IMG/VR virus record: IMGVR_UViG_3300028048_000047
Location: 96,001 to 160,000 of that record
DNA length: 64,000 nucleotides
Strand: one strand, 5' to 3'
Source of the DNA: a virus
Taxonomy: Duplodnaviria; Caudoviricetes
In this document: one piece after another, positions 17,002 to 60,754 of the stretch
Layout of the letters: each line of letters opens with the position of its first letter
How positions within the stretch are numbered: the first letter of the stretch is position 1
Notes under the pieces: generated by a model
Seen by the model: only the letters and a program-made list of their open reading frames with translations
Told to the model about the DNA's origin: nothing
The model's database searches: none
Position numbers and translations under genes: made by a program

Positions 17002-17271
17002 ATGAGTAAAAAAAGATTTAGAACGGGTAACGGAATTTTTAAAGGAGATTATTTTTCAGAAGCAATAATTGATGAAAAAACTGGTGAAAGATATTATGAT
17101 GGAATAAAACCAAATTATGTGAGTTCAAAAGAAGTGTGTGAGTTATTAAATAATTATGAAAATAATTTAAATAACAAATATTTTAATATTGAAAATAGAA
17201 TCTCTAAAATGGAAGAGAAACTACAAGAAATAGAGTATTATTTTAAAAAATATCAAAAAGATATAAACTGA
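17002..17271 (+). CDS. array-family protein (MSKKRF)
   Basis: head + IIDEKTG + CELLN. Confidence 0.7.
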   Translation: MSKKRFRTGNGIFKGDYFSEAIIDEKTGERYYDGIKPNYVSSKEVCELLNNYENNLNNKYFNIENRISKMEEKLQEIEYYFKKYQKDIN

Positions 17272-17507
17272 AATTTGTTTTAATTGTTTAAATGGGAACA
17301 AAAAGGAAGGTGATTAAACATGATTGAAAATAGAGGATACCCTAAAACTACTGGGTATCTTAAAAAATCACATCATAAAAGTTTACAATCTGAAATTATT
17401 GATGGTAAGTGGATAAATAATAAAATAGAAGAATTACGAAGATTAGGATATTCTGATGAATATATTAATCAAGAATTAGGACATTTAGTTAATTGGAGGA
17501 TTTAAAA

Positions 17508-17816
17508 ATGAGTGAAAATAAACGATTTATAGGTTCAAGTGGAGGGGTCTATGACCAATATAAAAGTGATAGATTTGCTTGGTCTGAATGGGAAGAAATT
17601 ATTCAAATAATGAATAATTTAAATGAAAAAGCAATAGAAAGAAGTAAAGCATTATCTAAACTACAAAAAGTGAATGAAAAGTTAAAATCAAGGAATGGTA
17701 ATCTATTAGAAACATTAGCATTCCGTAGTAATCAGTTAGTATTATTAGAAGAATTAATTGATGATTTAGGTAGTGAAGAGATGGTAAAGCAGATGGGGGA
17801 GATTTTGAATGGGTGA
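17508..17816 (+). CDS. array-family protein (MSENKRF)
   Basis: head + NEKLK. Confidence 0.7.
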   Translation: MSENKRFIGSSGGVYDQYKSDRFAWSEWEEIIQIMNNLNEKAIERSKALSKLQKVNEKLKSRNGNLLETLAFRSNQLVLLEELIDDLGSEEMVKQMGEILNG

Positions 17817-17968
17817 AACACAATTAAAAAAGTTTAGAGTTGAAAAAAGTAGTAGAATAAATGCTTTTTGCGTTACAAATGATAGGTATTCAGTAGTATT
17901 ATTAAAAGAGAATGAAGCGGGTGCTGTTTGTAACATGCTAAATAGAATGATAAAGGAGTTGGAATGAA

Positions 17969-18265
17969 ATGAATTCAAAGAGATATAAAGTGTACTCAGA
18001 TAGTTATAGTGCTGATATTGTTGATGAGATTACAGGTAATAATTATAATCAAATAACTGATATTGAAGATATATGTGATTTGTTAAACAACCAATATGAA
18101 CTGATTGAAAGAGTAAAAAAAGTAATGAAAGAGCATTATAATAACTCAAAAAAGGATTATGAACGAGCAGTTAAAGGAGGTATGCCATCATCAATATTAT
18201 ATGATGAAATGAGTCAAATTGAAGATATTATGAATGAAATTGGATTAGAATTAATTGGGGAATGA
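17969..18265 (+). CDS. array-family protein (MNSKRY)
   Basis: IVDEITG + CDLLN. Confidence 0.7.
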   Translation: MNSKRYKVYSDSYSADIVDEITGNNYNQITDIEDICDLLNNQYELIERVKKVMKEHYNNSKKDYERAVKGGMPSSILYDEMSQIEDIMNEIGLELIGE

Positions 18266-18345
18266 TAAAAATAGTAAATTTTATATTTCTCCAAAGATTT
18301 ATCATAAAATTTGATGATAAAATAAAAAAGATGGAGTGAATTGAA

Positions 18346-18708
18346 ATGAGTATAAAGCGATTTGAGAATAGATTAGATAAATCTAATATTAAATTTAATA
18401 CACAAAATCCTGTATGGGATAATGAGAAAAAAGATGCTTTGAATGTGTTTAAAATGATTGATTTATTGAATGAATTATATGATGTGAATAAAAAGTTGGA
18501 AAATGATTTAACTGATTGTAAGAAGCTTAAAGGGAAGAGATTGAATAAAATTAGAAATCATCGTGCAGTTATTGAGGATTTAGGAGGTGCAATCCGAACA
18601 TATAAAGGACAAATTTCTCAGTTGAATGAAAAAATTGATAAAATAAAAGGAGTAATAGATGATGATGGTGTTTTAACGAAAAGGGAATTAAATGATATTT
18701 TGCGTTGA
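18346..18708 (+). CDS. array-family protein (MSIKRF)
   Basis: WDNE + DLLNEL. Confidence 0.7.
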   Translation: MSIKRFENRLDKSNIKFNTQNPVWDNEKKDALNVFKMIDLLNELYDVNKKLENDLTDCKKLKGKRLNKIRNHRAVIEDLGGAIRTYKGQISQLNEKIDKIKGVIDDDGVLTKRELNDILR

Positions 18709-18740
18709 TTTGTTTATTCTTCAAAAAATATGATATTGGT

Positions 18741-18756
18741 TAGTAAAGTTTATATA
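18741..18756 (+). promoter_or_regulatory. archaeal promoter (TAGTAAAG-TTTATATA)
   Basis: TATA in the gap before 18792. Confidence 0.6.
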
Positions 18757-18791: not shown

Positions 18792-19103
18792 ATGGTATCT
18801 AAAAAAAGATTTAAGATGGAAACAATTGGAAATACAATGTTACCATTTATTGTTGATATTACTACTGCAAAAATGAAATCAAATACAATAACTACTTATC
18901 ATACATATGAAACACATAGAAAAGAAAAATGTTTAGAATTAGTTGATTTGTTAAATGAGCAACATGAAACAATCCAAAAATTAGAAGAATATTCGCAAAG
19001 GATAAATGAAACACTTCAATCATTTTCAAAAAGAGATTTAACAGATATTGAAAGAATATTTTTAAATAATCTTTGTAAGGAAATAGGTGTTGATTTAGAA
19101 TGA
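18792..19103 (+). CDS. array-family protein (MVSKKRF)
   Basis: head + VDLLNE. Confidence 0.7.
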   Translation: MVSKKRFKMETIGNTMLPFIVDITTAKMKSNTITTYHTYETHRKEKCLELVDLLNEQHETIQKLEEYSQRINETLQSFSKRDLTDIERIFLNNLCKEIGVDLE

Positions 19104-19297
19104 CTAAAAAACAACAGAATAAATTAAAAATATATTTAATATGGGAACGCCACAATGGTGTTGAGCGAAGGTTGAAAACTGGTTATATGGATAAGAAGTC
19201 TGCTTATAAGAAAGTAGAAGTCTGGAATAATCGGGAGAAGAAAGAAGATTGTGGGCATAGGTATTATGTTCGTGAATTTGAAGTGTATAAGAATTAA
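19100..19297 (+). CDS. hypothetical protein, paralog of 42829..42987
   Basis: YLI.E.HNGVE.RL.TGY..AYKKVE.WNNREK shared. Confidence 0.7.
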   Translation: MTKKQQNKLKIYLIWERHNGVERRLKTGYMDKKSAYKKVEVWNNREKKEDCGHRYYVREFEVYKN

Positions 19298-25292: not shown

Positions 25293-25307
25293 CGAAACAT
25301 TTATATG
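25293..25307 (+). promoter_or_regulatory. archaeal BRE-TATA promoter (CGAAA-CA-TTTATATG)
   Basis: Shares TTTAAAACGAAA with the 12687 promoter. Confidence 0.7.
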
Positions 25308-25493: not shown

Positions 25494-25757
25494 ATGACTG
25501 AAAATAAACGATTTAAAGGTGGACAAGGGGAAGTTAGTGTTGTCAGGGAGAATTTAATATTTAAATTATTATGTTTATTTGCAGAAGAGAATCAAGAATA
25601 TAGGGAAGAAAATACTCATTTAAAGTTAGAGAATGAGAAGTTAAAAAATGTTATAGTATTTGCTTATACACTTATGAGTCTGAACACTATTTCAGATGAA
25701 GAATATTCTGAGTTTTATGAGTTATGTGAAAATATGGGGGTGAGTTTGAATGACTGA
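25494..25757 (+). CDS. chimeric array-family protein (head of 23465 + tail of 25750)
   Basis: Direct alignment. Confidence 0.8.
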   Translation: MTENKRFKGGQGEVSVVRENLIFKLLCLFAEENQEYREENTHLKLENEKLKNVIVFAYTLMSLNTISDEEYSEFYELCENMGVSLND

Positions 25758-26082
25758 AAAATGGATTATTAAAAATGGAGAAATTGTAGATACAACCAAT
25801 AATATAACCTTTGATTCATTCATGGAAATCATAATAGTGCTAAACGGACAATCAAGACAATTAACTCAAATGTCAAAAGAAAATAAGAAGTTAAAATCAA
25901 TTTGTCAAGACCATCGTGACCATGCAATTGATTTTAAAGCAGATTGTGTAAGATTAGAAAAAGAGAATAAAGAGTTAAAAAATATTATATTATTTGCTTA
26001 TACACTTATGAGTAAAAACACTATTTCAGATGAGGAATATTTTGAGTTTTATGAGTTATGTGAAAAAGTAATAAAACAATAG
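25750..26082 (+). CDS. array-family protein (MTEKW)
   Basis: FAYTLMS.NTISDEEY tail. Confidence 0.75.
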   Translation: MTEKWIIKNGEIVDTTNNITFDSFMEIIIVLNGQSRQLTQMSKENKKLKSICQDHRDHAIDFKADCVRLEKENKELKNIILFAYTLMSKNTISDEEYFEFYELCEKVIKQ

Positions 26083-27732: not shown

Positions 27733-28209
27733 ATGACTGAAAAACGATTTTATGTTGATAAAAATGGGGATTTTAGAGATACCAAAACTGGTAATATTAT
27801 AGTTGATTTTGGTTATTCCTTTAATGGAATGGACTGCAAAATGATTTTAGATTTGTTAAATAAGTTAAATGATGAATGCGAGTTTCTTGAAATTGAAAAT
27901 GAATCATTGGAAGATGGTGCAACAAAATATGCAGAATTATATCATAAATCATTAAAAGAGAATGAGGAGTTAAAACAACAATTAAAAACAAGAGTAATTG
28001 TTAATAAACAGTATGAAGAACTCCAAAGACTTAAAAAAGAGAATGAACAGTTAAAAAAAGTATTAGGTGCAATATTACTTGAAGTGAGAAGAGATATTTC
28101 AAATACGAATCAAACTGGTGAAATAAAAGTATTTATCAATCCTAATAGTTTTGATTTAATTAGTGAAGTATTAAAGAAGTATGGAGCATTAAAGGGATGG
28201 TATGAATGA
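27733..28209 (+). CDS. array-family protein (MTEKRF)
   Basis: Head domain near-identical to 43486. Confidence 0.8.
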   Translation: MTEKRFYVDKNGDFRDTKTGNIIVDFGYSFNGMDCKMILDLLNKLNDECEFLEIENESLEDGATKYAELYHKSLKENEELKQQLKTRVIVNKQYEELQRLKKENEQLKKVLGAILLEVRRDISNTNQTGEIKVFINPNSFDLISEVLKKYGALKGWYE

Positions 28210-28721: not shown

Positions 28722-29252
28722 ATGACTGAAAAACGATTTAAGATGAAAAAACTTGAATATGAATCCTATTTTATTGATTCTCAACAAGAGTATGTTGATG
28801 AAGATGAGCCGAATTTTAAGATTGATGGTGAAAAAACATTGTCAGATTCACAAATTCTTGATTTATTAAACGAGAATGAACAGTTAAAATCTGAAATAAA
28901 AGATTTGAATGATGTACTTACAAGATACGAAGAAAAGGATTTACAAAAAATGAAGAAGGATACTCATATGGATGATGAATTAAGTTCTGATGAATTTTTT
29001 AAGAAATACATGGACGAAATGGACAAAGTGGGTTATGAAGTATTTGGGATTCGTTATATGGATGATTATGTTAATCTTTTCCCAAGTGAAGATGAACAAG
29101 CAGTTCGTGATAGTTTAACAAGATTTGCAGAATCATTCCATAAAGGACATAATGCCCTACCTGTTATAATATTGGTTAATAAATATTATATTAAATCATG
29201 GTTAGAAACTGGTAATGTTAAGGACGGTTATGGTAATTTGGTTAAATTATAA
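28722..29252 (+). CDS. array-family protein (MTEKRF)
   Basis: ENEQLKSEIKDLND shared with 45202. Confidence 0.75.
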   Translation: MTEKRFKMKKLEYESYFIDSQQEYVDEDEPNFKIDGEKTLSDSQILDLLNENEQLKSEIKDLNDVLTRYEEKDLQKMKKDTHMDDELSSDEFFKKYMDEMDKVGYEVFGIRYMDDYVNLFPSEDEQAVRDSLTRFAESFHKGHNALPVIILVNKYYIKSWLETGNVKDGYGNLVKL

Positions 29253-36540: not shown

Positions 36541-36555
36541 CGAAACATTTATATA
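36541..36555 (+). promoter_or_regulatory. archaeal BRE-TATA promoter (CGAAA-CA-TTTATATA)
   Basis: Canonical motif in an intergenic gap. Confidence 0.72.
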
Positions 36556-37643: not shown

Positions 37644-37928
37644 ATGACTGAAAAACGATTTGAATGGGATGATATCAATATTGCAATTATCGATACTCAA
37701 AATAGGAAAAAGTATTGGATTGATGTAACTTGCATTGATGAGATTGTTGATTTGTTGAATAGTCTTGATGAAAAATATGTTGATGAGTTTATTCTTTGTG
37801 AAACACTACAACATGAGTTACAAAGAGTTGAAAATGAGAATGAGAAGTTAAAACAACAAATTAATGAATTACAATTTAACAAAGCATTAGGACAACAAGA
37901 ATATCAAAAGAGGGTTTTTTATGACTGA
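37644..37928 (+). CDS. array-family protein (MTEKRF)
   Basis: IVDLLN + ENEKLK. Confidence 0.75.
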   Translation: MTEKRFEWDDINIAIIDTQNRKKYWIDVTCIDEIVDLLNSLDEKYVDEFILCETLQHELQRVENENEKLKQQINELQFNKALGQQEYQKRVFYD

Positions 37929-38259
37929 AAAGAAACTATTTACAAAGGGAAGTGAAATTCTAAAAAAAGAAGATAAATGTTGTATATGTAACAGTAAAAA
38001 CAATCTTGAACCACATCATATTTTACATACTACAAAATATGATGAACTACATGATAGTATTGATAATCTTGTTGTAATGTGTCATAATTGTCATCATAAT
38101 TATCATCAACAGTACAATCCAGAAATAACATTCAGAACATTATTAGAATTTCAAAAAAAGTATTGGAAAGAGTATTGTCCGAAATTAAGAACAAAAAATA
38201 AAAAATTACAAAAACAGAATACAGATTTACGAAAAATAATAAACAAAATGGGGGAATAA
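37921..38259 (+). CDS. HNH endonuclease with MTEKK head
   Basis: CCIC..LEPHHI..NLVVMCHNCH..YH. Confidence 0.8.
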   Translation: MTEKKLFTKGSEILKKEDKCCICNSKNNLEPHHILHTTKYDELHDSIDNLVVMCHNCHHNYHQQYNPEITFRTLLEFQKKYWKEYCPKLRTKNKKLQKQNTDLRKIINKMGE

Positions 38260-38586: not shown

Positions 38587-40025
38587 TTTTGATATGGCTG
38601 AAAAATATAAAGTAACTGTTAATGATTTGTACATTGAATTAAAAAAACTTGTTGAGAATGGTGATGGTGATAAACCAGTTAAATTAAGTGTTAACTGGGA
38701 CGATTGTGAACATATGAAAAATTTAAGAGCATTTAGTGAAGATTATGGAAATTGGATTTTATTAATGGGGTATGATTAAAATGACTGAAAAGAAACGATT
38801 TATTGTTGATGATGGAACAGTATTGGATACAGTTACTGGTGAGAATTTTGATACAGTTGAAGAAGTTGTAACTACTTTGAATTACTACGAAGATAATTGT
38901 TTACGATATCAAAAAACAATTGCCGAACTAAAAAATGGTACTTATAAAGAAGAGTTACCTATAACTCAAAGGAAGTGAAAGAATGACTGAAAAACGATGG
39001 ATTATTGAAGATGATGAACTTTTACAAATAATTGATAGTAAAGGAGAATATGAAACAGTATGTGTATTATATTCAAAAGATGCACATCAAATAATGGATT
39101 TATTAAATCAAAAAGAAGAACGAATTGACTATTTAGAACATCAGTTACATAGTTTAAATGGATTATGGGCTTCTGATAAAGAAGATATGAGTTATCCATT
39201 TAGATTAGAATTTAAGGAGTTGTAAATGAATGACTGAAAAATTATCTTTTGTGTATTATGGGGATGATGAAGCATTAATTCTTGAAAATGGTAAGGATAT
39301 TGGTGTTGCAAGAGGGAAAAGATTATTACAAATCCTTGAATTAATTAATACTGCTTGTAGTAAATATGGTATTGATTTTGAGTGTTTAGAAGAATGTTTA
39401 GATGATTTTGATGAATTTTTAGAAGATGAATATAATAGTAGATTATATGGATACTCCAAAGATGAAGAAGTGGAGTGATTTAGAATGACTGAAAAACGGT
39501 TTAGTAAATTGGATGAAGATTTTTGTTTAGTTGATGGGAAAATTTTTGTTAAATTTGCAAGAATTTTTGAATTAATTGAAGATGCAGAATGTTTAGAAAG
39601 TTTAGAGGCAATATGTGGAGCAGATTTAGATTATATTGTTGCTACTTATCTTACACCTCAATAGGTGATTTAGAATGACTGAAAAATTTAAACCTCCTTT
39701 TGTAAGGGATAGGGCAGTTATTTTAGATGATATTGCTTATACAGAAAGTATATTGAAACGAAAACCGAATGATGAGAAATTAAAAAGGATTGTTAAAGAT
39801 TTAAACGATGAGTTAAGTTATACCAAACCTTCTTTAATCGAAAGGATATTTAAAAGGTGATTGAAATTATTGAAAAATTATTAGTGAAGATATTTAAACC
39901 AGTTATACTTATAAATGCTTTTGAAATCTTAACAGGGAAAAACGAGATGTCAGAAACACAAAAAAGAATAGCATATGCCACTACATATGGTTCTGACATG
40001 ATGGAATATAAAAGAGATGATTTAG

Positions 40026-40541
40026 ATGACTGAAAAACGATTTACATATATTAAAAATTCTTCAATTTCTCAATATCAATCAATCCCAATTCAAAAAATT
40101 GGCAAAGGAAAACCATTTCATTGTCAAGGAATTGTAGATGAATTAAATAAATTGTGGAATGAGAATGAAGAGTTAAAATCTGAAATTCAAAAACTCAAAA
40201 AAGAAAACAGATTACTTGAAATCGAAGATGAAAATTTTAAAGATTGTCTTATTGAATTTAATAAAACAAAACAAAACTTTAATGAGATTAAAGAACAATT
40301 TGTATATGATGTATATGATTTTATGGAGAATAAAGGAATTCTTGTGAGAGTATTGTTCTTTGGAGATACTTTTGGTTTGGATATAAAGAGAAACTGGGAT
40401 AATATGACGAATTCTCCAAGAAAAATTCCATTGAATGTTTTAACTGAATTCTGTAATACTTTCGGGTGTGAATTTGAATATACAAAATGTGGTGGAAGTA
40501 GATATATTTTTAGTTTTGATGGATTAAATATGGAGTATTAA
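40026..40541 (+). CDS. array-family protein (MTEKRF) with extra C-terminal domain
   Basis: C-term EFCNTFG resembles DFCNEFG in 19752..20051. Confidence 0.75.
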   Translation: MTEKRFTYIKNSSISQYQSIPIQKIGKGKPFHCQGIVDELNKLWNENEELKSEIQKLKKENRLLEIEDENFKDCLIEFNKTKQNFNEIKEQFVYDVYDFMENKGILVRVLFFGDTFGLDIKRNWDNMTNSPRKIPLNVLTEFCNTFGCEFEYTKCGGSRYIFSFDGLNMEY

Positions 40542-41437: not shown

Positions 41438-42440
41438 ATTTAATAGGAAGTGAAAAAAATGTTGTTGTTAGATATTTATAAGATTTTACATAAAATAGAT
41501 GATATTACTTACACATTGGAGGATTTAGAATGATTGAAAAACGATTTACATTAGATTTTGATGACTCACGAACAGTATGGATTGATGATAATATTACTAA
41601 TAAAAATTATACTGTTATTAATGACACTCTTAAAAAAAAGAACATTCAGGAGATTGTAGATTGTTTGAATGAACTTCACGAAGAGAATGAGCAGTTAAAA
41701 CAACAAATAAATGATGGTTATTTTTAAGACATTTGATAAGGAAGTGGGAGAATGGGTTTGCTAATTATACACAATAAGGTAAATAATTTGAAATATGTTT
41801 GTGATGAAACAATATCCAAGACACTATATGATGAAGAGAGTAATACAATTATAATGTGTAAAAAAGATTGGGAAAAGTTTATAAGTGGGGAAAATGACTG
41901 AAAAACGATATGATAATGATGAAATATTTTACTGGGCAATTATGTTCTCCTTCGTTGCAATGATGTGGATTACAGTATTACTGGCTTGGGTGATTTAGAA
42001 TGACTGAAAAACGATATGGGTATATGAGTCATGAGGAACTTATTGCCGAAAATGAGAGAGTAATAAAACAGACAGAAATGTTAATTAAAATAATCTATAT
42101 TATGTTAGGACTTACAGTTGTTGCATATTTTGTTTTAATTTTATTGAAATTAGGAGTGATAAAATGAGTGGAATATATTCTGATTGGGCGAAATGTAGAT
42201 ATTGTATGTACGAAGCATTACTGGATAGAGCAGTATGTGTTTTAAATTATGAACCTTGCGAAAGAGAAAGTTGTGAGATGATTAAGAAATGACTGGGATT
42301 GATGATTTGATTATTTGTCCACGATGTTTAAAACCTATGGGTGATGATGTTACTGTTACAACTTGTCAATATTGTGGATATAAAGAATGTGATAACTTGA
42401 ATGATACAATTGAAAAAAAGGGAACTGGAAGTGAATTTGA

Positions 42441-42770
42441 ATGACTACGAATAACCGATTTCGTGTTGAAAAACAAATATTTGATGGGTATTGTATTGTT
42501 GATAATCATTTTGAAGGATACTATGCTTATGAGAAACAAGATTTAGAAAAACTCTGTGAAAACTTGAATGATTTAAATGATGAGAATGAGAAGTTAAAAC
42601 AATCATACATTCAATTAAAACATAGACATAGTTTATTGCATGATGAATGTTTAGATGCAGAATGTGAAAGAGATAGCTTGAAAAAAGATGTGGAATCATT
42701 AGAAAAAGAAAATGAGCGATTAAAACATCGAGTAGAATTTTTTAAAGCATTAGCAGAGGGGGTTGATTAA
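42441..42770 (+). CDS. array-family protein (MTTNNRF)
   Basis: LNDENEKLK. Confidence 0.75.
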   Translation: MTTNNRFRVEKQIFDGYCIVDNHFEGYYAYEKQDLEKLCENLNDLNDENEKLKQSYIQLKHRHSLLHDECLDAECERDSLKKDVESLEKENERLKHRVEFFKALAEGVD

Positions 42771-42828
42771 AATAACTAAAAAATGATATTTGCTTATAAA
42801 AATCATATAATAATGTGGGTGATGATAA

Positions 42829-42987
42829 TTGATTGTTTATTTAATTTATGAATTGCATAATGGTGTTGAACCAAGATTAAGAACTGGATATGTTAATAGG
42901 AGAACTGCTTACAAAAAAGTAGAAGAATGGAATAATAGAGAGAAAGTACATAATTATTATATTAAAGAATTTGAGGTGATAGAATGA
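42829..42987 (+). CDS. 52-aa paralog of 19100..19297 (not in ORF track)
   Basis: TTG start after GGTGA; stop overlaps the next ATG. Confidence 0.7.
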   Translation: MIVYLIYELHNGVEPRLRTGYVNRRTAYKKVEEWNNREKVHNYYIKEFEVIE

Positions 42988-43183
42988 CTGATAAGAATTT
43001 GATAGATTTGAATTATGATGAATTGCAATGTTTAAAATCTGCAATTCATCAAATGCACAAAGGAGCAATTAGGGATTTAGATAAAGAGAGCAGATTAAGG
43101 ATTTGTAAAAGAGGATTTGAATTTATTAACGAAAAAACTGGAAAAACATTTCAAGTGACATTAGAGATAAAGGAGTTAAAAGA

Positions 43184-43489
43184 ATGATTGAAAAACGATT
43201 TACAATTAAATCACAAGATGATTTGTTTGGAGTAGTGGATAATTATTCTCCCGATAAAATATGTGTTGTTAATGGTATTCGTACTGAAATCGAAACAAAG
43301 TGGTTATGTAATGTGTTGAATGATTTAAATGATGAAAATGAACAGTTAAAAGAAGATGCTAAACAAGTGTTATTTGTATTGGCTTGTTGTGATAAAGATT
43401 TTGGATTAAGTATTAATGAAGCGAAAGCAATTAAAAGATTAAATGAATGTGTTGATGGATGTTATAATACAGAGGGATTATTGAAATGA
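43184..43489 (+). CDS. array-family protein (MIEKRF)
   Basis: LNDENEQLK. Confidence 0.75.
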   Translation: MIEKRFTIKSQDDLFGVVDNYSPDKICVVNGIRTEIETKWLCNVLNDLNDENEQLKEDAKQVLFVLACCDKDFGLSINEAKAIKRLNECVDGCYNTEGLLK

Positions 43490-43902
43490 CTGAAAAAAGA
43501 TTTATTGTTGATAAAAGTGGAGATTTTACAGATACCAAAACTGGTAATTGTATAGTTGATTTTGGTTATTCTTTTAATGGAATGGACTGCAAATTGATTT
43601 TAGATTTGTTGAATAGTTTAAATGATGAGAATGAACAGTTGAAAAAAGAAAACAAAAAACTTCAAGATGAATATGATTTGTGGATATATAATAGTGTAGG
43701 TTGTGAATATGATTCCTTAAAAGAAGAGAATGAGCAGTTAAAACAATTCAAAGATAAAACATTTGATTTATTCGATAAAGAAATTATTCGATATGAAGAA
43801 GTGATTGAAGTATTGGGAAAACAAGTTTCAGATGGAGGAGCAATGAGATTTTACACAAAAATGCTAAAAATATTACGAAAGGAGTTACAAATGAATGACT
43901 GA
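43486..43902 (+). CDS. chimeric array-family protein (head like 27733, tail like 23910)
   Basis: Direct alignment. Confidence 0.8.
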   Translation: MTEKRFIVDKSGDFTDTKTGNCIVDFGYSFNGMDCKLILDLLNSLNDENEQLKKENKKLQDEYDLWIYNSVGCEYDSLKEENEQLKQFKDKTFDLFDKEIIRYEEVIEVLGKQVSDGGAMRFYTKMLKILRKELQMND

Positions 43903-44335
43903 AAAATGTTGTCCTGATTGTGAGTATATTAAAGTAATTATAAGTCAAATGGGGAATTATTACTGTCCTAAAAAAGAAGTATATATTGATTATGAGTTTT
44001 ATTGTGATTGTGATGATTTTAAAAGAGGTAATGAAACATTATGGGAAAAAGAAAAGAAAGTGTGGTGAGGGTCATACTGAATATGAAGTAGGCGAAAGGG
44101 GTTTTTGAATGACTGAAAAAAGATTTGAATGTGATAAAGGAAGTCGGATAATAATTGATAATGAAACAAAATTACATTATATTATGACTTTGGATTGGGA
44201 ATGCAGTTTAGTCACAAAACTATTGAACCATTTTGCAGAAGAGAATGAACAGTTAAAAAAAGAAAAGGACTATTATAAAAGAGAATTACAGAAAGAATTA
44301 GTATGTCAAGCAATCATTAATGGGAGGAGAAAAGA

Positions 44336-45201: not shown

Positions 45202-45456
45202 ATGACTGAAAATAAACGATTTACTGTTAAACAAAGACAAGGTACAACAATTTACAGTATTATAGATTATTATGGAGAATTACCTTTAAGCGAAGGAATG
45301 TACTATAAGAACAATGCAGAAAAGTTATGCAGATGGTTGAATACTCAACATGAATCACTAAATGCTTTTTGTAAAGAGAATGAGCAGTTAAAATCTGAAA
45401 TAAAAGATTTAAACGATATAGTTACAAGGTATGAAGAAAAGGAGTTAGAAGAATGA
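45202..45456 (+). CDS. chimeric array-family protein (head like 60078, tail like 28722)
   Basis: Direct alignment. Confidence 0.8.
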   Translation: MTENKRFTVKQRQGTTIYSIIDYYGELPLSEGMYYKNNAEKLCRWLNTQHESLNAFCKENEQLKSEIKDLNDIVTRYEEKELEE

Positions 45457-46316
45457 CTGAAAAACTACATTGTGGTCAATGTAAACATTTTTATCATTTT
45501 TATTGTTCGTTAAGGAACATTCAAGTGAGTTATAGTGATAAAACTTGCCCACAATTCAAAGAGAAGTGGTATAATGACTGAAAAACTACCTGTTTGGAAA
45601 GGGAATATCTTGTATGTATGGTCAGAACATTATAATTCATATGTTGCAAATTATTCTATACCAATCCATCAAATTCTATGCTTTGGAAAAAGTGTTGAAG
45701 AATGGAAGAAAATGTTCTGTCTTGATAAATATAAGGTGATAGAATGACTGAAAAACAATACAGATTAAATAAATGGGGTACAAGGTTATTAAAAAATAAT
45801 AGACCATTATTTGATTGGACTAATGAATCCGATGAGATTGTGGATATGTTGAATGAGTTAAACGATAAGAATGAGCAGTTAAAACAACGAATTAAAAGTA
45901 GATTACATTATTATCGTGAATTATGTAATGAATTTGATAAAGATGATGGATTTACTTATAATATCGTTAAAAGAATTGTTGAAGATTTGGAAGATATTTT
46001 AAAGTGATAAAATGGCTGAAAAAAGATTTACATTTACACAAGACACATTAGTAAAAGCAGATGTATTTGATGGGAGCGAATTTGTTTGTTGTACTTTATC
46101 TGTATGGGTAGAACAATTAGTTGATTTATTAAATCAATTAAATGATGAGAATGAGCAGTTGAAAAAATCTGTAAAAAGACAACAAAGTAGCAATAATGAA
46201 TGTGCAAAATTAATAAAAGAACAACAAAAAGAAAATGAACAATTAAAACAACTTATTACAGAGTTACAAAATGAATTAAACAATTGTGAAGAAGATTATA
46301 TTTTAGAGGAATACCT

Positions 46317-47105: not shown

Positions 47106-47506
47106 CTGAAAATAAACGATTTAAATTAGGATATGTTTGTGGAGATTATGGGTTAATTGATAATGATGAATGGATTGATTTACATTCAATGTCTGAAAAT
47201 TCTGAAAAGAATGTACAAATCTGTATAAACAAAATGAATGAGTTAGCAGATGAGAATGAGCAGTTAAAAAAAGAAAATAATATCTTAAAAGCATCAAATG
47301 GGGAATATGAAGATGCACTTGCAAGATTAGAAGAAGAAAATGAGCAGTTAAAACATCGTATTAAGAAGTTGCAAAATGATTTAAACAATTATTCAGAAAT
47401 TTTTAACGAATTAAATGGTCTTATAGATGAGAATGAGCAGTTAAAACAAGAGATTGAAACATTACATGAACAATTAACACATATTGATGGAGGTATGTTT
47501 GAATGA
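47102..47506 (+). CDS. array-family protein with three ENEQLK motifs
   Basis: Read directly. Confidence 0.75.
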   Translation: MTENKRFKLGYVCGDYGLIDNDEWIDLHSMSENSEKNVQICINKMNELADENEQLKKENNILKASNGEYEDALARLEEENEQLKHRIKKLQNDLNNYSEIFNELNGLIDENEQLKQEIETLHEQLTHIDGGMFE

Positions 47507-47704: not shown

Positions 47705-48034
47705 ATGACTGAAAAACGATTTACATTAACTTTTGATGATAAAATAGTTGATAACTTAACTGGAATTATACACGAGGTTCATAGTGGATATGATGTTGCT
47801 ATGGATTTAAGTGGATTGTTGAATGATTTAAATGATGATAATGAGCAGTTAAAATCAATAATAAAAGAAGTTACTGAATTATTATCTGATGAAGTTGATT
47901 TATTCTCCGATAAAGCAACAGAACATGACCTTAATGCTTATATGGAATTAAATGAATTTGACAATAAAGATGCTTTTTATATGGCAACCGCTACAAAGAA
48001 AGCAATACGAATGTTAAAGGAGTTGCAAGAATGA
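47705..48034 (+). CDS. array-family protein (MTEKRF)
   Basis: IVDNLTG + LLNDLN. Confidence 0.75.
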   Translation: MTEKRFTLTFDDKIVDNLTGIIHEVHSGYDVAMDLSGLLNDLNDDNEQLKSIIKEVTELLSDEVDLFSDKATEHDLNAYMELNEFDNKDAFYMATATKKAIRMLKELQE

Positions 48035-49376: not shown

Positions 49377-51534
49377 ATGAATGAAATTTCAATTGACATT
49401 ACAAAACTCAGCATTAAACCATACAATTGCACATATTATTGTCCTCGGACATTATTATCAAAAAGTAATTGCATCGGATATTGTCAAATGGGAAATAATG
49501 ATGTAAAATATTGTAAAGGTTCTTATTGTGAAGAATATGAGAAGAAGGAGGATTTTGAATGACTGAAAGAAGATTTATTTATACATTTAAGAAGAATGGT
49601 ACGATGGTTATTATTGATAAAAAAGATAATGTTTTAATTCGTGATAAATATCGTGCTTGTGATTATTTAAATAGGTTAAACAATGAGAATGAGCAGTTAA
49701 AAGAAGATTTAGATTATTATAAAAAAAGAATAAAAGAATTAGAAATTGAAAATCAAAGACAATCTGATGCAATTGATGGATTACAAGGATTTATAACCCA
49801 TTACGATTGGAGGATTTAGAATGACTGAAAAACAGTTTATATATAACAGGTGTGAAGATGGATTTTATGATATAATTGATATAAAAAACCATCATGCTTA
49901 TCCAATAGGTAATATGGAAATATTTATTATTGGAATTGTTGAATTATTAAATAATTTAGCAGAAAAAAATAAAAACTTGAAAAAAAAGAATGAGCAGTTA
50001 AAACAATTACTGTTACAATTCTATACAGAAGATGAAATTAATGCAGAGATGATTTGAATGATTTTGAAAGTTCTGATGAAATGGAGAAAATGGATTAAGA
50101 TTATGAGATACTGTTTAACAGTAAAAAATCTTATTTATGATTTTTTAGGGTGTTAAAATTGAATTTTTGGTGGAAATGTATTTATCTTCAATATCATAAT
50201 CATTTACCTTTGTGTATGAATCCTAATTTGTATATGACTAAGCGTAGGCGTGATTGTTTGATGAGTGATTGTGATTGTATGGTTTTTGAAGGTGAGCATA
50301 AAAGTATTATGAGGTGATTAGAATGACTGAAAAAAATGTTTCAAATGAAAAAATGACCGAAAAAAAATTTGTTGCAATGTATGTTGTTGATGGAGAGATG
50401 GCAATTGTTGATACTCACACTACAACTGCTTACTATACCATTGGTGAAATTGAAAAGTTATTGAATGAACAACAAGAAATTATTGTTAAACAAGCCCAAA
50501 AGTTAATAGAATTAGACAGATGGTAAAAAAGGGAGTTATGAAAATATGATGGAAAAGACAAAGTTAATTTTCAAAGATGATGTGATAAACGGATATAAAC
50601 ATTATATTAATTTTAAAAGAGATTTTAGTGGAGCATTAGCAGTATTTGAAAAATATATTTTACCAGCTTATGCGGATATTGGTATCGATGCAAATAATGA
50701 CTGGTTAATATTAACTCTTCAATATGATACTGAAATGGAAGATTATCTTGAAATATTAAAGCAAGATTGGAATTATTTAACTGAATTTTTGAATAATGAA
50801 GGTATCCAATTTTCATATCCATCAATGTATGATGATTGGAGCATGGTGATTCCAATTGATGATTTTGTTGAATGGGTGCTAAAAAATGACTGAACTATAC
50901 GGTAAACAATACTACTCTAATCTCATTACAGATAACATACAAGTACATTTAGTTAGAGTATTACTGCGACAAGATATGAATAATCAAATATGGAAAACAA
51001 TTTCATCAAAAATATCAGTAAAACCCACTTATAATAAAGAATGGATTACAAAAGAATTGGATTTAGATGACGATGAGATTACAGTTACAATAACTACCAA
51101 AAAAGGTAAAAAAATCGAGTTTACTAAAAAATTAGAAATATATACTCCTACTGATGAAGAGTTAAACGAATGGGATAATACTCATGATAAGAAATTTGTT
51201 AGTCGAATGAGATGTCCTCCTGCCGATGAGGTTGGTGGGAATACTGGGGTATTAAGGTGATTGTGAATGACTGAAAAACGATTTAAGCTTGTATATATTG
51301 ATGATGATGATGAATGGAGTTTATATGATTCTGTTGAGGGAAAATATTATAATATAGACCTTACAATGTATCAAAAGGAGATAGAAAGGTTAGAGAGAAA
51401 TCATAAAAACTTACATGAAAAATATGAAGAAATAGAAAGGAAATACAAAGAGTATTATCGTAAATATACTCAAATAAAGAATAATATCAATAGTGCGAAA
51501 CGAATTTATTTAAATTTGAAGGAGTGCTTTGAGA

Positions 51535-51849
51535 ATGGCTAAACGATTTAAAATTACTCAAAAGGGAGATTTGTTTACAGTTAGAGATGTTGTTGAAAAT
51601 AAACCTATGGGAGTATTTGAGTTTAAAGAAAATGAATTTCCAATATATGCTTGTTTTCATCGTATAATAGACTTGTTGAATGAGTTAAACGATGAGAATG
51701 AGCAGTTAGAAGAAGGATGGAAAAGATGTAGAGATTGGCTAAATTCTGATAAATATGATTATGAATTGACATTGGCATTTATCAAAAACAAAGGATATTC
51801 ATTAAAAGATGTGCTTGAATATGAAAAGGAGTTGAAGATGAATGACTGA
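51535..51849 (+). CDS. array-family protein (MAKRF)
   Basis: FIK.KGYSL tail shared with 52446. Confidence 0.75.
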   Translation: MAKRFKITQKGDLFTVRDVVENKPMGVFEFKENEFPIYACFHRIIDLLNELNDENEQLEEGWKRCRDWLNSDKYDYELTLAFIKNKGYSLKDVLEYEKELKMND

Positions 51850-56146: not shown

Positions 56147-56623
56147 ATGACTGAAAAACGATATTATGAGAAAGAATACGGTGAAGAATATTATATTTTT
56201 GACTCTGAAATTTTAACTGAAAAAGACTTTGATGAAAAAATAGAATATGAAGGATATAAAACATTTGAAGATAGTTTAACTGGTGAAGAAATTGTTGATT
56301 TATTAAATAATAATGAAAAATTAAACCGAACAATACAAGAATTATACCAATTCCGATTATTATATAATGCACATTTATTCAATGAATGGGCAGAAAATGG
56401 GAAATATGAAGTTTATAAATCAAGGAAACATGATAATGGTGAAGAATGTTTTGATGGTGAATGGTTCATAGTTATAGCAATATTACCAACTGGACAAATA
56501 AGCAACCATTACCATATAAAAGATTGGGATTTATTCAAAATACCATCACTTGATAAAGTTAAAGATAAATTTGATGGTCATACATCAACTGATGTGTTGG
56601 ATAGATTAAAAAATCTATTATAA
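56147..56623 (+). CDS. array head module fused to a WDGH-type conserved phage domain
   Basis: ELY.FR..KSRKHD.G..WFIV..LPTGQISNHY..WDLF..FDGHT..DVLDRL. Confidence 0.7.
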   Translation: MTEKRYYEKEYGEEYYIFDSEILTEKDFDEKIEYEGYKTFEDSLTGEEIVDLLNNNEKLNRTIQELYQFRLLYNAHLFNEWAENGKYEVYKSRKHDNGEECFDGEWFIVIAILPTGQISNHYHIKDWDLFKIPSLDKVKDKFDGHTSTDVLDRLKNLL

Positions 56624-57803: not shown

Positions 57804-58118
57804 ATGACTGAATTAACTGATAAAGAAAAAGCATTATTGATTTTGGAAAAATCAAGTGAAGAATTTACTAAATGTACAACAGAAATTAGAAAATTACAAG
57901 AATCATTATATGCTTTGAATTGTGCATTTGAAAATACAAGTAGACTACTTAATAGATACTTTAACGAAGAGGAAAACGGAGGCAATATTCATAAAAACTG
58001 TGAATGGTATAATCCTGAAAAAGATTATTGTAGTAATTATATGATGGGAAAGTATACTGGTTTGGCTTTTAATGTTTCAAAAAATAAGGAATGTATTAAG
58101 GATTTGGTGGATGAATGA
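57804..58118 (+). CDS. MTELTDKEKALLILEK protein, copy 1
   Basis: Paralog of 58408. Confidence 0.75.
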   Translation: MTELTDKEKALLILEKSSEEFTKCTTEIRKLQESLYALNCAFENTSRLLNRYFNEEENGGNIHKNCEWYNPEKDYCSNYMMGKYTGLAFNVSKNKECIKDLVDE

Positions 58119-58407
58119 CTGAAAAACGATTTTTTATTTTGAAAGATGAAAAATTTAAAGATGTTTTACCATGTATAAGGGATAGAAATTCAAAAATAGA
58201 TGATATTTATGGACATTATAAGTATGATGACATCGAACAAATATGTTTATTCTTAAATGAGCAAAATGATGAAATTGAAATGTTAAAATCTATTAAAAAA
58301 ATTATACAAAATTATAATACTAATGAATATAAGCATTCATCAGATGCTTTAACAGATATTATGGACATACTTGAAAAATAAATATCTAACTTTAAGGAGT
58401 GGTTTTT

Positions 58408-58725
58408 ATGACTGAATTAACTGATAAAGAAAAAGCATTACTCATATTAGAAAAAGCAAAAAATGCTTTCAATGAATGTGGTAAACAAGTAAGGGAAACT
58501 CAAACTGCTTTTAGGGGGGAATTAACATCAGCAGTTGAAACTGCAAATGATAATCTTAAAAGAGTCTTGAATGAAGAGGAAAATAATGGTAATATTCATA
58601 AAGATTGTAGATGGTATAATCCGAATAAGGATTCTTGTAGTAATTATATGATGGGGAAATATACTGGTTTGGCTTTTGAAGTAAGTAGACATGATAAATG
58701 TATTAAGGATTTGGTGAATGAATGA
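58408..58725 (+). CDS. MTELTDKEKALLILEK protein, copy 2
   Basis: Paralog of 57804. Confidence 0.75.
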   Translation: MTELTDKEKALLILEKAKNAFNECGKQVRETQTAFRGELTSAVETANDNLKRVLNEEENNGNIHKDCRWYNPNKDSCSNYMMGKYTGLAFEVSRHDKCIKDLVNE

Positions 58726-58907
58726 CTGAAAAAAGATTTACAATAGTTAATATGGGATTGAATGGACAATATATAAAAGAAAATGGAAAAATAATAACAA
58801 TAGAAAGAGTTGTCGATTTATTAAATGAGAACGAGCAGTTAAAGGATTTCATACGAAAAGAATTTCCCAAAAATATCATATAAACATATCCATTAGGAGG
58901 TTTTTGA

Positions 58908-59366
58908 ATGAATATGGAAAAAATGACTCTTGAAGAAAAACTTGAATATTACCAAAGACAAACTCATCAACTTAAAAAAAGAAGAGATGATGCTAATGAT
59001 AAAATAGAATATTTAAATAGTTATATTAAAGAATTACATCAAGAGATTAATAATTTAAAATCTGAAAAACGATTTAAACAAGTTGTTGATGGTGTTAAAG
59101 ACACAAGAACTGGTAGGACTTTAACACACCCGTTAGACTTTACTTTGAAATTGAATGAACTTAATACCTTATATGATTATGTTTTTGATAGGAACGAAGA
59201 ACTTGAAAAAAAGAATGAACAATTAAAACAACAATTATCAGATATTAAGGGACAATTAGTAATGTTGGATAACTGTGACAATTGGGATTATGACCGAATG
59301 AAACATACTGTAAGAGAGATTGCAGAAATAATTGGTTATAATGGAACAATAAACCCTAAAATGTGA
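58908..59366 (+). CDS. coiled coil fused to an internal array module (SEKRF)
   Basis: Internal TCTGAAAAACGATTT. Confidence 0.7.
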   Translation: MNMEKMTLEEKLEYYQRQTHQLKKRRDDANDKIEYLNSYIKELHQEINNLKSEKRFKQVVDGVKDTRTGRTLTHPLDFTLKLNELNTLYDYVFDRNEELEKKNEQLKQQLSDIKGQLVMLDNCDNWDYDRMKHTVREIAEIIGYNGTINPKM

Positions 59367-60077
59367 TGTGCAATGACCGATGAAGATTGTGATAAAATTA
59401 TAGAATTATGTTGGTGGCATTTAGGAACTTGTGAATTAGCAGATTGTATTATAGATTCTTGTGATATAATGTGTGGTGATATGGAATGATTGTTGATGGT
59501 ATAAGTCTAATAATGGGGGGAATCTTTGGTTTCATAATAGGCATAGCATTAGTAAAAGACAAATATAGGAAAGAATGTCATAGATTAGAAGAAAATATTA
59601 TCAGATTACAATATGATGCCCAAATAACTAAATACAAAAATCAGAGGTGATGAGGAATGACTTGTCAATTTGAAGATAGTACAATGATTGATACTCATTG
59701 TAAAATCAAAATATGGAATGATGGATTTGAGGACACTTACTGTCAAACTGGTTGTCCTTTAAAAGAGTTAAAAGGGGATGTGGAATGACTGGAATTGATG
59801 ATTTAATTATATGCCCACGATGCTTAAAACCTATGGGGGAAGAAGTGGATACAATGGTTTGTCAATATTGTGAGTATAATGAAAAAGAAAACAATGAACT
59901 TGAAAAAGGAAAGAAATTTGATAAGGAATTGGATTAAATGAGCAGTTTAACAGATATTTATGTAATTCATCAAATAACTGGATTACCGTACACAAGCATA
60001 ATAACTATAAGCATTATTGGATTTATAATACTATGCCCAATAGTGATTTTTTTAGTGAAGAAGAATGGAGAATTATT

Positions 60078-60557
60078 ATGACTACGAATAAACGATTTAC
60101 TGTTAAACAAAGGCAAGGTACAACAATTTACAGTATTATAGATTATTATGGAGAATTACCTTTAAGTGAAGGAATGTACTATAAAAGCAATGCGAATAAA
60201 CTATGTGAATGGTTAAATACTCAACACGAATTGTTAAATACTTTGTATAATGAGAATGATGAGTTAAAAGCAAGTAATGAAGGTCTTTTAAAAGATTTGT
60301 ATGATAGGTTTAAACTTATCAAATCAGTAGAAAAAGAAAATCAACAATTAGTTAAAATGCTTGACAATGTAACGAATTATATACAAAGAGAACATAAAGA
60401 AATTCCAATTGATGATTTTGTGGAATGGTGGAATAATATAGCAACAGAAGGATTAGAAGATGATAATAGTGTTAATGAAAATAAGATTAGAAAAAGAAAA
60501 GTTAAAGCAGATGGTAAGGTGGATTATGTAGGTATTTCAAAGGAGGATTTAGAATGA
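60078..60557 (+). CDS. array-family protein (MTTNKRF)
   Basis: First ~140 nt near-identical to 45202. Confidence 0.8.
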   Translation: MTTNKRFTVKQRQGTTIYSIIDYYGELPLSEGMYYKSNANKLCEWLNTQHELLNTLYNENDELKASNEGLLKDLYDRFKLIKSVEKENQQLVKMLDNVTNYIQREHKEIPIDDFVEWWNNIATEGLEDDNSVNENKIRKRKVKADGKVDYVGISKEDLE

Positions 60558-60754
60558 CTGAAAAATATTACTTAGTAGTAGAAATAAGTGGAAGTTTAGC
60601 CAAAATGTACGACAATATAAGTGAAGAAAATATAATGGATGTTAATGAAACCGTAAATAAATTAAACGAACTAACCCAAGAAAATCAAATTCTTAAAACA
60701 GAAAATATCCTATTGAAAAAAGAATTGAAAAAAATGACTGAAAAACATTCCTAA
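60554..60754 (+). CDS. last array cassette, ending in an in-frame empty head (MTEKHS*)
   Basis: ATGACTGAAAAACATTCCTAA at 60734-60754. Confidence 0.7.
   Translation: MTEKYYLVVEISGSLAKMYDNISEENIMDVNETVNKLNELTQENQILKTENILLKKELKKMTEKHS

Follow-up and report, generated by a model that had tools for sequence, protein, structure and literature searches.

The window analysed here, a 64,000-nucleotide stretch of IMG/VR record IMGVR_UViG_3300028048_000047 (positions 96,001 to 160,000), holds a long array of small genes packed on one strand, many of which begin with the same short sequence, referred to below as the head [Table 1]. The contig to which it belongs (195,936 bp) is that of a tailed archaeal virus of the Caudoviricetes, encoding a TerL (PF17289, phrog_38, 9e-72), a portal protein (PF04860, 4e-29), tape-measure phrogs and a TFIIB-family (TFB) homologue (2e-33). 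The closest TerL in the phage collection (54% identity) belongs to a Methanobacteriales virus, which together with the TFB homologue upholds the first-pass annotation of this DNA as an archaeal mobile element. The exact head was found in six ruminant Methanobrevibacter MAG contigs, and a ruminant Methanobrevibacter is the probable host. Within the window, 20.5 kb is matched at 100% by an independent ENA assembly of 203 kb. The window is likely to hold the accessory-gene region of a tailed virus of roughly 196-203 kb.

Table 1. Features of the array and of its strain comparison, in window coordinates.
Feature	Position	Strand	Remarks
Whole array	17002..60754	+	~155 small ORFs, all same-strand; median length ~75 aa; tight packing
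Exact head ATGACTGAAAAACGATTT, example	47705..47722	+	MTEKRF
Other exact head ATGACTGAAAAACGATTT starts	22919, 27733, 28722, 37644, 40026, 40544, 48927, 51267, 52446, 54336, 58115	+	
Joint 2 GAGAATGAGCAGTTAAAA, example	47252..47269	+	Inside gene 47102-47506; strain block ends just beyond, at 47274
Other GAGAATGAGCAGTTAAAA copies, including	28350-28367, 43627-43644, 49685-49702, 51694-51711	+	
Modelled family member	47705..48034	+	Predicted structure
HNH-type gene	37921..38259	+	Head variant MTEKKLF; PF01844 match weak
WDGH-domain gene	56147..56623	+	Behind head MTEKRY; PF25311, 9e-30
BRE/TATA-like CGAAACATTTATATA	36541..36555	+	Exact, in 231-nt gap
BRE/TATA-like CGAAACATTTATATA, second copy	25293-25307	+	1 mismatch
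Four-gene block	39503..40531	+	Absent in L056; flanking heads 39485 and 40544
2.2-kb block	41914..44107	+	Absent in L056; flanking heads 41894 and 44109
Zinc-ribbon cassette body	45469..45572	+	Absent in L056; flanking heads 45453 and 45574
Head-like AAATCTGAAAAACGATTT	59058..59075	+	Internal to ORF 58908-59366
N-segment module	27733..27875	+	91% identical to 43486-43628, first head base to zipper joint; tails differ
Tail module	28869..28949	+	86% identical to 45373-45453, zipper joint to next head; N-segments differ

Gene content and layout of the array

Gene calling returned 155 + strand ORFs within window positions 17000-60760. The small-ORF array of ~44 kb described from the sequence alone thus stands, together with its repeated head (53 matches to ATGACTGAAAAACGATTT), although the original estimate of 80-100 ORFs was too low. 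Sixty of the array starts overlap the preceding ORF, 44 of them by 4 nt and 16 by 8 nt. A full head, the MTENKRF variant counted in, is carried by 60 of the 155 ORFs and a further 28 bear only ATGACTGA or ATGAnTRA; with 35 ORFs bearing just ATGA and 32 none of these start motifs, the statement that each ORF starts with a head variant was an exaggeration.

Alignment of the members of the main protein family recovered the architecture proposed at the outset, with the head followed by an unalignable, hypervariable segment of 30-50 aa, the zipper motif LLNxLNDENEQLK and a variable tail. Fifty-six homologues with one tail type bear at least 30 unrelated N-segments. Entirely unrelated cargo was also confirmed behind the head, in the form of CxxC zinc ribbons, TM peptides, and HNH and WDGH domains. 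For the proposed host-interaction or anti-defence role, searches returned neither a Pfam family nor a matching fold. Of the two BRE/TATA-like sequences listed in Table 1, that at 36541 is a putative promoter and likely marks the start of a long transcription unit; consistent with the earlier impression that no clear BRE-TATA lies between 36.6 and 57 kb, the sole CGAAACATTTATATA match there is a chance one within a head. The array may be transcribed as long operons with translational coupling between cassettes.

Nucleotide conservation of the MTEKRF head

The 18-mer ATGACTGAAAAACGATTT, which encodes MTEKRF, has 53 matches at three or fewer mismatches, where shuffled sequence would give 0.53; they fall exclusively on the + strand, from window position 17002 to 59075, and a search of the whole contig gave none outside the array region and none on the - strand. 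Each match is an ORF start preceded by a Shine-Dalgarno (SD) sequence of the GGAGG/GGTGA type, so that the shared element (SD plus codons 1-6) does lie within the coding start, as first read. The first eight bases of the head, ATGACTGA, combine the start codon with a TGA in both other frames, because of which the upstream cassette can be ended and the next ORF started in any frame. Stops in both other frames no more than 8 nt from the start occur at 83 of the 155 array starts, compared to 9/81, 14/126 and 12/103 in other regions of the genome. The description of the array as expression-ready fits these findings, as an SD and a start come with each cassette and an upstream ORF read in either of the other frames is stopped by the head. 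A requirement for the second TGA could by itself account for a preference for ACT as the Thr codon of the head.

Codon 2 of the head (Thr) is ACT in 73 cases and ACA in three, against a background of 47:45, and the Arg codon is CGA in 44 and AGA in 11, against 8-13% vs 54%. Non-seed heads of distant IMG/VR contigs follow the same trend (ACT 25 vs ACA 6, CGA 20 vs AGA 11). The synonymous sites of the head, whose freedom to vary would have spoken for conservation as protein only, are thus strongly biased, and head conservation falls off with distance from the ATG. As judged from codon choice, the head is conserved as DNA, beyond the protein level.

A second joint within a predicted zipper

A second in-frame joint, GAGAATGAGCAGTTAAAA, encodes ENEQLK in mid-gene and is likewise conserved with rare codons (GAG 32 vs GAA 11, CAG 25 vs CAA 3; backgrounds 22% and 17%), its letters being the same in two other viruses. 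The AF2 model of the family member listed in Table 1 (pLDDT 83.7) consists of three short strands, the first of which is encoded by the head, a long helix (residues 29-63) containing joint 2, and two further helices. As a homodimer this protein scored 0.44 (best control, 0.00), a mark attained by 20 of 30 proteins whose structures were solved as pairs of one chain and by 1 of 23 whose structures were solved with a single chain. Across the homodimer runs at least 74% of contacts agreed, with a partner pLDDT of at least 64, and the predicted contacts ran in register from 35:35 to 53:53. Joint 2 is predicted from these models to sit in a parallel dimer zipper, and N-segments and tails could be swapped without breaking frame or fold because GAGAATGAGCAGTTAAAA falls in the heptad register of that zipper. 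Dimeric binding proteins would then make up the library that the array encodes.

Strain breakpoints at the two joints

The comparison sequences were metagenome assemblies throughout, and the only close strain for this virus (L056) spans 9.4 kb at 95-99% identity. Its alignment with the window falls into 12 blocks and reveals block deletions, replacements and chimeras, including the absence of the three blocks listed in Table 1. Scored by eye, 15 of the 23 interior block ends lie in heads, four in joint 2 and two in the SD of non-head genes. An automatic test on 22 of these ends placed 13 in heads (expectation 8.4%, p = 2e-9). Of the 14 ends that fell at gene starts, 13 were at heads, where 53% would be expected (p = 0.002). 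In the same strain, the body behind the head-like AAATCTGAAAAACGATTT instead follows a true head that lies downstream of gene 50886-51260. Four of the L056 junctions recur identically in a second run (L057), the exact shared stretches at these junctions measuring 12-17 nt and the assembler k being 31.

Across 64 loci, 44 of 250 HSP ends fell in head windows (background 3.1%, p = 1e-20) and 28 in joint-2 windows (background 2.9%, p = 1e-9). In another lineage, two loci (L058 and L059) differed by breaks at ENKQLK, KRF and a start codon, and both arrangements recur in other samples. Paralogue matches inside the window cover the stretch between a head and the joint that follows, or between a joint and the next head, as in the N-segment and tail modules of Table 1. 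Thus, the comparison of cassette order suggested by the first-pass annotation reveals strains that are not simply colinear and whose homology blocks break in heads and ENEQLK. Since close relatives break at the head and at the second motif, the virus appears to reshuffle its protein library.

Search for an enzyme

The absence of an integrase from the window, noted earlier, was verified, Phage_integrase-like ORFs occurring only elsewhere in the genome: the PF00589 profile hit two ORFs, at 165.9 kb (25.5 bits) and 11.5 kb (13.1 bits), both below the 27.1 cut-off. A search for a recombinase found none dedicated to the joints and none common to the five head-bearing viruses checked (this virus, G000, and G001-G004). 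Searches for an enzyme tied to the joints found no Rad51/RadA, Rad52 or resolvase, and no PF00078 match to a reverse transcriptase was present in the genome. An ERF annealing protein is encoded by this virus (5e-15) and absent from G001-G004; ERF annealing was thus rejected as a necessary partner of the joints.

Discussion

Evolution of the region probably proceeds through recombination over short homologies at two joints, both of them in frame and conserved in nucleotide sequence. One small-protein family would have expanded to several dozen copies, with unrelated small genes drawn in behind joint 1 (SD, spacer and ATGACTGAAAAACGATTT). Crossovers between joints within one genome would delete or duplicate cassettes, those between co-infecting relatives would replace cassettes or create head/tail chimeras, and repeated exchange would keep the joints alike. 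Such concerted evolution is a likely explanation for the head variant private to G001, ATGAGTGAGAAACGATTT, which occurs in seven copies with both TGAs kept. Synonymous-site conservation, the placing of the breakpoints and the modular paralogues are the parts of this scheme that were observed directly. That the joints are, beyond this, recognition sites of a programmed diversification, driven by a viral or host nuclease or annealing factor during replication, is in our view improbable. Any homology-dependent recombination breaks where diverged genes share sequence, and joint placing alone is no proof of purpose.

It is rather unlikely that the head is kept for expression, as an RNA element where ribosomes land, with recombination a by-product. 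The head would then couple stop to start, so that termination-reinitiation could run along very long operons, and might also be the operator for a translational regulator encoded by virus or host, for which the T4 RegA sites offer a comparison; crossovers would fall at the head only because it is the one stretch shared. The both-frame stops given by ATGAnTGA at 83 of 155 starts and used by the 60 overlaps agree with a role in expression, as do the restriction of the head to a single region and strand of the genome, its occurrence on unrelated cargo, the drop of its conservation away from the ATG and the retention of both TGAs in G001 despite changed codons. The start-associated sequences (SAS) of Cluster K mycobacteriophages are also start-linked and in one orientation, lie only in the non-structural half, before genes of varied families, and have a suggested role in translation (PMC3203893). 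Expression leaves unexplained, however, AAACGATTT and the CGA preference, as well as GAGAATGAGCAGTTAAAA, which is equally rare-codon-conserved in mid-gene and away from any start. Moreover, at 24 of the 52 ATGACTGAA heads neither TGA comes into use, the preceding ORF having already ended, and neither a regulator candidate nor an Rfam family was found.

The other explanations carry less weight. In T-even phages, the capsid targeting sequence (CTS) of the internal proteins (IPs) takes varied anti-restriction proteins into the phage head, from which they are injected. The IP locus is reportedly polymorphic between relatives, and DNA coding for the CTS is said, after Repoila et al. in 1994, to serve recombination there as well. 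MTEKRF could similarly be an N-terminal peptide signal and the array a set of virion-delivered effectors, given that six identical residues sit on unrelated folds and that the T-even internal proteins are highly diverse defence proteins sharing only the CTS (PMC3012670). Yet a peptide signal has no need of fixed synonymous codons, the modelled fold has the head residues as its first strand rather than as a free leader, and 60-88 different packaged proteins would be unprecedented, all of which makes this very unlikely. A site-specific, integron-type cassette system or a mutagenic diversity-generating retroelement (DGR) is suggested only by the look of many one-orientation, promoterless cassettes behind few promoters and by the two weak Phage_integrase-like ORFs, which are far from the array. 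The repeat is non-palindromic, lies within the coding start and is never on the - strand; neither resolvase nor reverse transcriptase was detected, and the unalignable variable segments are unlike point-mutated copies of a template. Nothing integron-like was found to bear out the analogy drawn in the first-pass annotation, since IntI is missing beside the array and so are palindromic sites of the attC type; both the integron and the DGR are contradicted and exceedingly unlikely. Equally remote is an ordinary family of recently duplicated paralogues whose mosaics arose as metagenome assembly artefacts. The comparison sequences are assemblies, and repeats may mislead assemblers, but the exact repeats at the junctions (12-17 nt) are shorter than k = 31 or 141, junctions are identical in two runs, the L058 and L059 arrangements were each seen again in other samples, and the 203-kb assembly was made independently. 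Nor are the paralogues recent copies, because they are unalignable outside the joints.

Several known systems come close to the array. In the linker model of Susskind and Botstein, conserved short sequences at module borders are said to be sites of homologous exchange; the linkers of the array differ in lying within coding sequence, in fixing the reading frame and in numbering dozens per genome. The PeSL elements shuffled in T4-type phages (Arbiol et al. 2010, PMC2839356; Comeau et al. 2014, PMC4122927) are similarly short, one-orientation repeats that separate small, non-essential ORFs in a hyperplastic region, and the ends of indels and replacements between close relatives lie in them, as 15 of 23 do here in heads and four in joint 2. 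Mini-circles excised between adjacent repeats belong to the PeSL mechanism as well. PeSLs are, however, intergenic and consist of an early promoter and a stem-loop terminator, whereas the repeat of the array is an SD and the first six codons, in frame, of ORFs that overlap by 4 or 8 nt with few BRE/TATA-like sites; the array further has a second, mid-gene joint that makes protein chimeras, and its host is archaeal. The SAS of Cluster K mycobacteriophages (Pope et al. 2011, PMC3203893), a 13-bp GGGATAGGAGCCC located 3-7 bp upstream of the start, shares with the head its tie to starts of different gene families, its single orientation and its place in the non-structural half; it differs in being non-coding and overlapping the SD, the array motif having another sequence that begins at the ATG, and the passages of that paper on the SAS describe no recombination role. 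The T-even IP locus resembles the array in its highly diverse small proteins with a short conserved N-terminal leader (PMC3012670), but comprises few genes per phage and a leader that is a packaging signal cleaved by the prohead protease, as opposed to 60 heads and a second joint. Integrons share the one-orientation promoterless cassettes behind few promoters; the array lacks an adjacent IntI, attI or attC, and exchange would proceed by short homology, not at a folded site. By analogy, the array works like modular shuffling of the linker or PeSL type, unlike an integron or a DGR.

Little work has been done on methanogen viruses, and the ways in which large viruses create and replenish their numerous small orphan genes are still to be worked out. 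A start/stop joint and a zipper joint would let any N-segment, tail or foreign small gene combine in frame, and natural strains display such in-frame exchanges. The array thus provides a testable model of modular evolution on a scale (60 heads, 155 genes, 44 kb) not described in the literature searched, and its joints are simple sequence marks with which to find like regions in other archaeal viruses. If diversification were programmed, each burst would be a population with differently assembled cassettes, whose zipper-sharing products could pair and so multiply dimeric binders against host defence or surface variation, amounting to viral cassette variation without integrase or reverse transcriptase. 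The region points to a pool of candidate host-interaction proteins from viruses of the main methane producers of the rumen.

Shared coding start of the array genes

The first-pass annotation had claimed a same-strand array of small genes sharing one coding start, MTEKRF (the head), and this was borne out: the 18-mer ATGACTGAAAAACGATTT was matched 53 times at up to three mismatches against 0.53 expected, always on the plus strand between window positions 17002 and 59075, and every match was the start of an ORF with an SD upstream. No copy was found in the rest of the genome, and no antisense copy that could serve as a small-RNA regulator on its minus strand. Gene calling yielded 155 array ORFs, of which 60 begin with the full head (including a MTENKRF variant), 28 with ATGACTGA or ATGAnTRA, 35 with ATGA only and 32 with none of these. 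About 55 fell into one family upon BLASTP clustering, and at least ten full heads precede cargo that is clearly unrelated, comprising zinc ribbons, TM peptides and one domain each of the HNH and WDGH types. A small conserved protein devoid of the head (LHNGVEPRLRTGY...REKxxxYYIKEFEV) occurs at window 19100-19297 and 42829-42987, and again in the array region (L107) of G001, another head-bearing virus.

Promoter-like BRE/TATA sites were seen at 25293 and 36541 and no convincing one beyond the latter up to 57 kb, suggesting that the array may be transcribed as very long operons. A near-identical promoter-like sequence, (C)CGAAACATTTATAT(A), is present in three wide intergenic gaps (window 25293-25307 and 36541-36555, and within the final 200 nt of the genome). 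A 20-kb portion of the array had no megablast match among deposited phages, and literature searches returned no description of such an array.

A very large virus with a probable methanogen host

The window corresponds to positions 96001-160000 of one contig of 195,936 bp, whose IMG/VR record is rated complete by CheckV. The genome has a GC content of ~26%, a strongly positive GC skew all along, and ORFs nearly all on the plus strand. Large terminase, portal and tape measure are encoded in its left 60 kb, the closest terminase among deposited phages being that of Caudoviricetes sp. vir080 (annotated host, Methanobacteriales; 54% identity). A TFIIB-family gene (PF00382, 2e-33) lies immediately right of the array at window 61478-62188 (+), pseudomurein endoisopeptidase-type domains are present on related smaller contigs, and six MAG contigs of ruminant Methanobrevibacter carry the exact head, the remaining matches of that scan approximating the number due to chance. 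Thus, the element is an archaeal tailed virus of very large size, and its host is most probably a rumen Methanobrevibacter. The same virus was retrieved from an independent ENA assembly as a 203,062-bp contig (L105, ERZ27252073 k141_1253993; 100% identity across the 20.5 kb compared) and, with archaeal viral genomes ranging from 3 to 188 kb in a 2026 catalogue (PMC13465236), would therefore be among the largest archaeal viruses. The samples containing it and its near strain are Logan SRR8442993, SRR30091534 and SRR30091532 and ENA ERZ27252073.

The contig starts (genome 1-200, L001:1-200) inside a tandem repeat with a period of ~27 nt (AGGTATGGTGGGAGTTATTGGTGCAAT...), leaving the true genome end uncertain. 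The large terminase (L001:13375-15201) aligns to its relatives as two pieces covering ~73% of the protein; its middle, approximately residues 205-350, has no match to them and may be an insertion. The TFIIB/TFB homologue displays two cyclin repeats and apparently misses the N-terminal zinc ribbon; its gene is higher in G+C than the neighbouring DNA, with a BRE/TATA-like site at 61399-61413. Genome positions 60-96 kb (L004-L005) carry nucleotide and DNA-modification genes, encoding QueC, PTPS/QueD, a radical-SAM enzyme, SurE, two ParB-N proteins and several DNA methylases, along with a dCTP deaminase, a thymidylate synthase, PCNA and an RNase_T exonuclease, a gene set suggestive of 7-deazaguanine-type DNA modification. 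The right arm (genome 157-196 kb; L006, L007) is quite unlike the array in architecture, with 20-24% GC, intergenic gaps of more than 30 nt in 73 of 103 cases and an eight-member family of hydrophobic 30-65-aa peptides. The 318-aa ORF at 12751-13707 carries an internal imperfect tandem duplication (window 12754-13588; ~70% identity; period ~245-490 nt). The window yielded no tRNA upon scanning and no Rfam hit at the gathering score.

Strain differences break at heads and at a mid-gene joint

L056, a 9.4-kb contig of a near-identical strain from a different run, aligned to window 38.9-52.2 kb at 95-99% identity in 12 blocks. Base-by-base reading of its 23 interior block ends placed 15 in heads, four in the mid-gene ENEQLK motif separating N-segment from tail (joint 2), two at the SD of non-head genes and two elsewhere; the four junctions in joint 2 generate N-segment/tail chimeras. 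In an automatic test of the 22 ends inside window 38.9-52.25 kb, 13 fell in heads versus 8.4% expected at random positions (p = 2e-9), and under a stricter null confining ends to gene starts, 13 of 14 did versus 53% expected (p = 0.002). Exact identity at the junctions spans just 12-17 nt, which is too short to mislead an assembler at k = 31, and four junctions recur in L057, a contig from a second run. Between L058 and L059, a pair from another lineage with a different terminase type, breaks occurred at ENKQLK, within KRF and at a start codon. More broadly, of 250 interior HSP ends from 64 loci and the window, 44 coincided with head windows (background 3.1%, p = 1e-20) and 28 with those of joint 2 (background 2.9%, p = 1e-9). 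The recombination-driven modularity inferred in the first-pass annotation is supported by the tests which that annotation itself had put forward. Exact-protein look-ups for close strains (L104-L106) returned sequences 100% identical to the window, i.e., the same virus with no added information, and a homologue search with the protein at 52446 did not turn up any long contig with a near-identical variant.

Paralogues within the array match from head to joint or from joint to next head (see table), and 56 metagenomic homologues of one tail type carry at least 30 unrelated N-segments, all with MTEKRF-type heads.

Strain differences, modular paralogues and integrase-like ORFs
Feature	Position	Detail
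Four-gene block missing in L056	window 39503-40531	between heads at 39485 and 40544
Block missing in L056	window 41914-44107	between heads at 41894 and 44109
One zinc-ribbon cassette missing in L056		between heads at 45453 and 45574
Body behind internal head-like sequence	window 59058	in L056, same body fused to true head at 51267
Head-to-joint paralogue match	27733-27875	with 43486-43628
Head-to-joint paralogue match	45199-45393	with 60075-60269
Joint-to-next-head paralogue match	28869-28949	with 45373-45453
Joint-to-next-head paralogue match	25628-25732	with 25962-26066
272-aa ORF, sub-threshold Phage_integrase	genome 165862-166680 (L072)	25.5 bits
272-aa ORF, sub-threshold Phage_integrase	genome 11491-12309 (L073)	13.1 bits

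At joint 2, ENEQLK is written as GAGAATGAGCAGTTAAAA, with the first Glu encoded by GAG in 32 cases and GAA in 11 (background GAG, 22%) and the Gln by CAG in 25 and CAA in three (background CAG, 17%); the letters are identical in two other viruses. In an AlphaFold model of a family member (pLDDT 83.7), three short strands are present, the first of which is encoded by the head, and joint 2 lies within a long helix (residues 29-63). The predicted homodimer scored 0.44 (best control, 0.00), a level attained by 20 of 30 proteins whose solved structures are pairs of one chain and by one of 23 whose solved structures are single chains; contact agreement between runs was at least 74% and partner pLDDT at least 64. 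The predicted contacts, 35:35, 39:39, 42:42, 46:46, 49:49 and 53:53, describe a parallel in-register zipper that would run through joint 2. Fold searches of PDB and BFVD with the family model gave no match at E <= 0.001, and comparison of the family to Pfam and PHROGs gave no Pfam family, just coiled-coil noise and a weak phrog_3671 hit; the anti-defence role put forward in the first-pass annotation therefore stays hypothetical.

The head is conserved as DNA

Codon 2 is Thr in 78 of the 155 array genes, as against 3-4 genes in every other region of the genome, and is written ACT 73 times and ACA three times (genome usage of these codons, 47:45); within KRF, Arg is encoded by CGA in 44 cases and by AGA in 11 (background 8-13% and 54%, respectively). 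The exact 18-mer was present in 48 stretches from ~35 IMG/VR contigs (GC 25-37%) whose DNA is, apart from this, hardly or not at all similar to that of the window virus, and the non-seed heads of IMG/VR loci retain the preference (ACT 25:6, CGA 20:11). The head is therefore conserved at the DNA level, and the free variation at synonymous sites that would have spoken against the first-pass reading was not seen.

Part of this conservation has a simple reading in start/stop coupling, ATGACTGA comprising ATG, a TGA in frame +1 and a TGA in frame +2. At 83 of 155 array starts, both alternative frames meet a stop within 8 nt (9/81, 14/126 and 12/103 in other regions), and the upstream ORF ends at the first TGA in 44 cases and at the second in 16. 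Neither AAACGATTT nor the CGA preference is accounted for by coupling, however, and 24 of 52 ATGACTGAA heads use neither TGA; the double stop is thus kept even where unneeded, which is what a portable junction should show.

Each of four further head-bearing viruses, complete or nearly so (87-155 kb), holds just 4-11 heads, making the present array by far the largest among those compared. G001 (155 kb) has seven copies of a dialect of its own, ATGAGTGAGAAACGATTT (MSEKRF), seen in L107 (G001:C1:100001-119000, reverse strand); this dialect retains both out-of-frame TGAs, and a lineage-specific LNEQQATI stretch stands ahead of the joint (ENEQL). Such sameness of heads inside a genome, in otherwise unalignable genes, fits homogenisation through repeated exchange and could also be accounted for by a co-evolving binding factor.

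Candidate machinery and relation to known systems

Nothing demonstrates a dedicated machine for the exchange. The window virus encodes an ERF-family annealing protein (genome 81476-82180) that is absent from the four other head-bearing viruses (G001-G004); searches revealed no Rad51/RadA, Rad52, resolvase, serine recombinase or reverse transcriptase, and the integrase-like candidates were limited to two sub-threshold ORFs far from the array, possibly tyrosine recombinases with a role in integration or dimer resolution. None of ERF, Rad51/RadA and Rad52, considered as a recombinase common to head-bearing viruses, proved to be shared. The exchange may require no more than recombination by the host or slippage during replication.

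Integrons and DGRs were both rejected as their defining features were not found, among them a reverse transcriptase in the case of DGRs. The closest described system is the PeSL-mediated modular shuffling of T4-type phages, which follows the same logic as the array; PeSL repeats, however, are intergenic promoter-terminator cassettes, unlike the in-frame head at the coding start (PMC2839356). Cluster K start-associated sequences resemble the head in start linkage and genomic distribution but sit upstream of the ATG, where the head begins (PMC3203893). The internal proteins of T-even phages are diverse defence proteins in which only an N-terminal targeting leader is conserved (PMC3012670), and array proteins resemble them in carrying a conserved N-terminus on diverse proteins. 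The array would be a variant of an already described logic of modular shuffling, with a different type and position of repeat, and is of high interest for virus evolution and archaeal virology.
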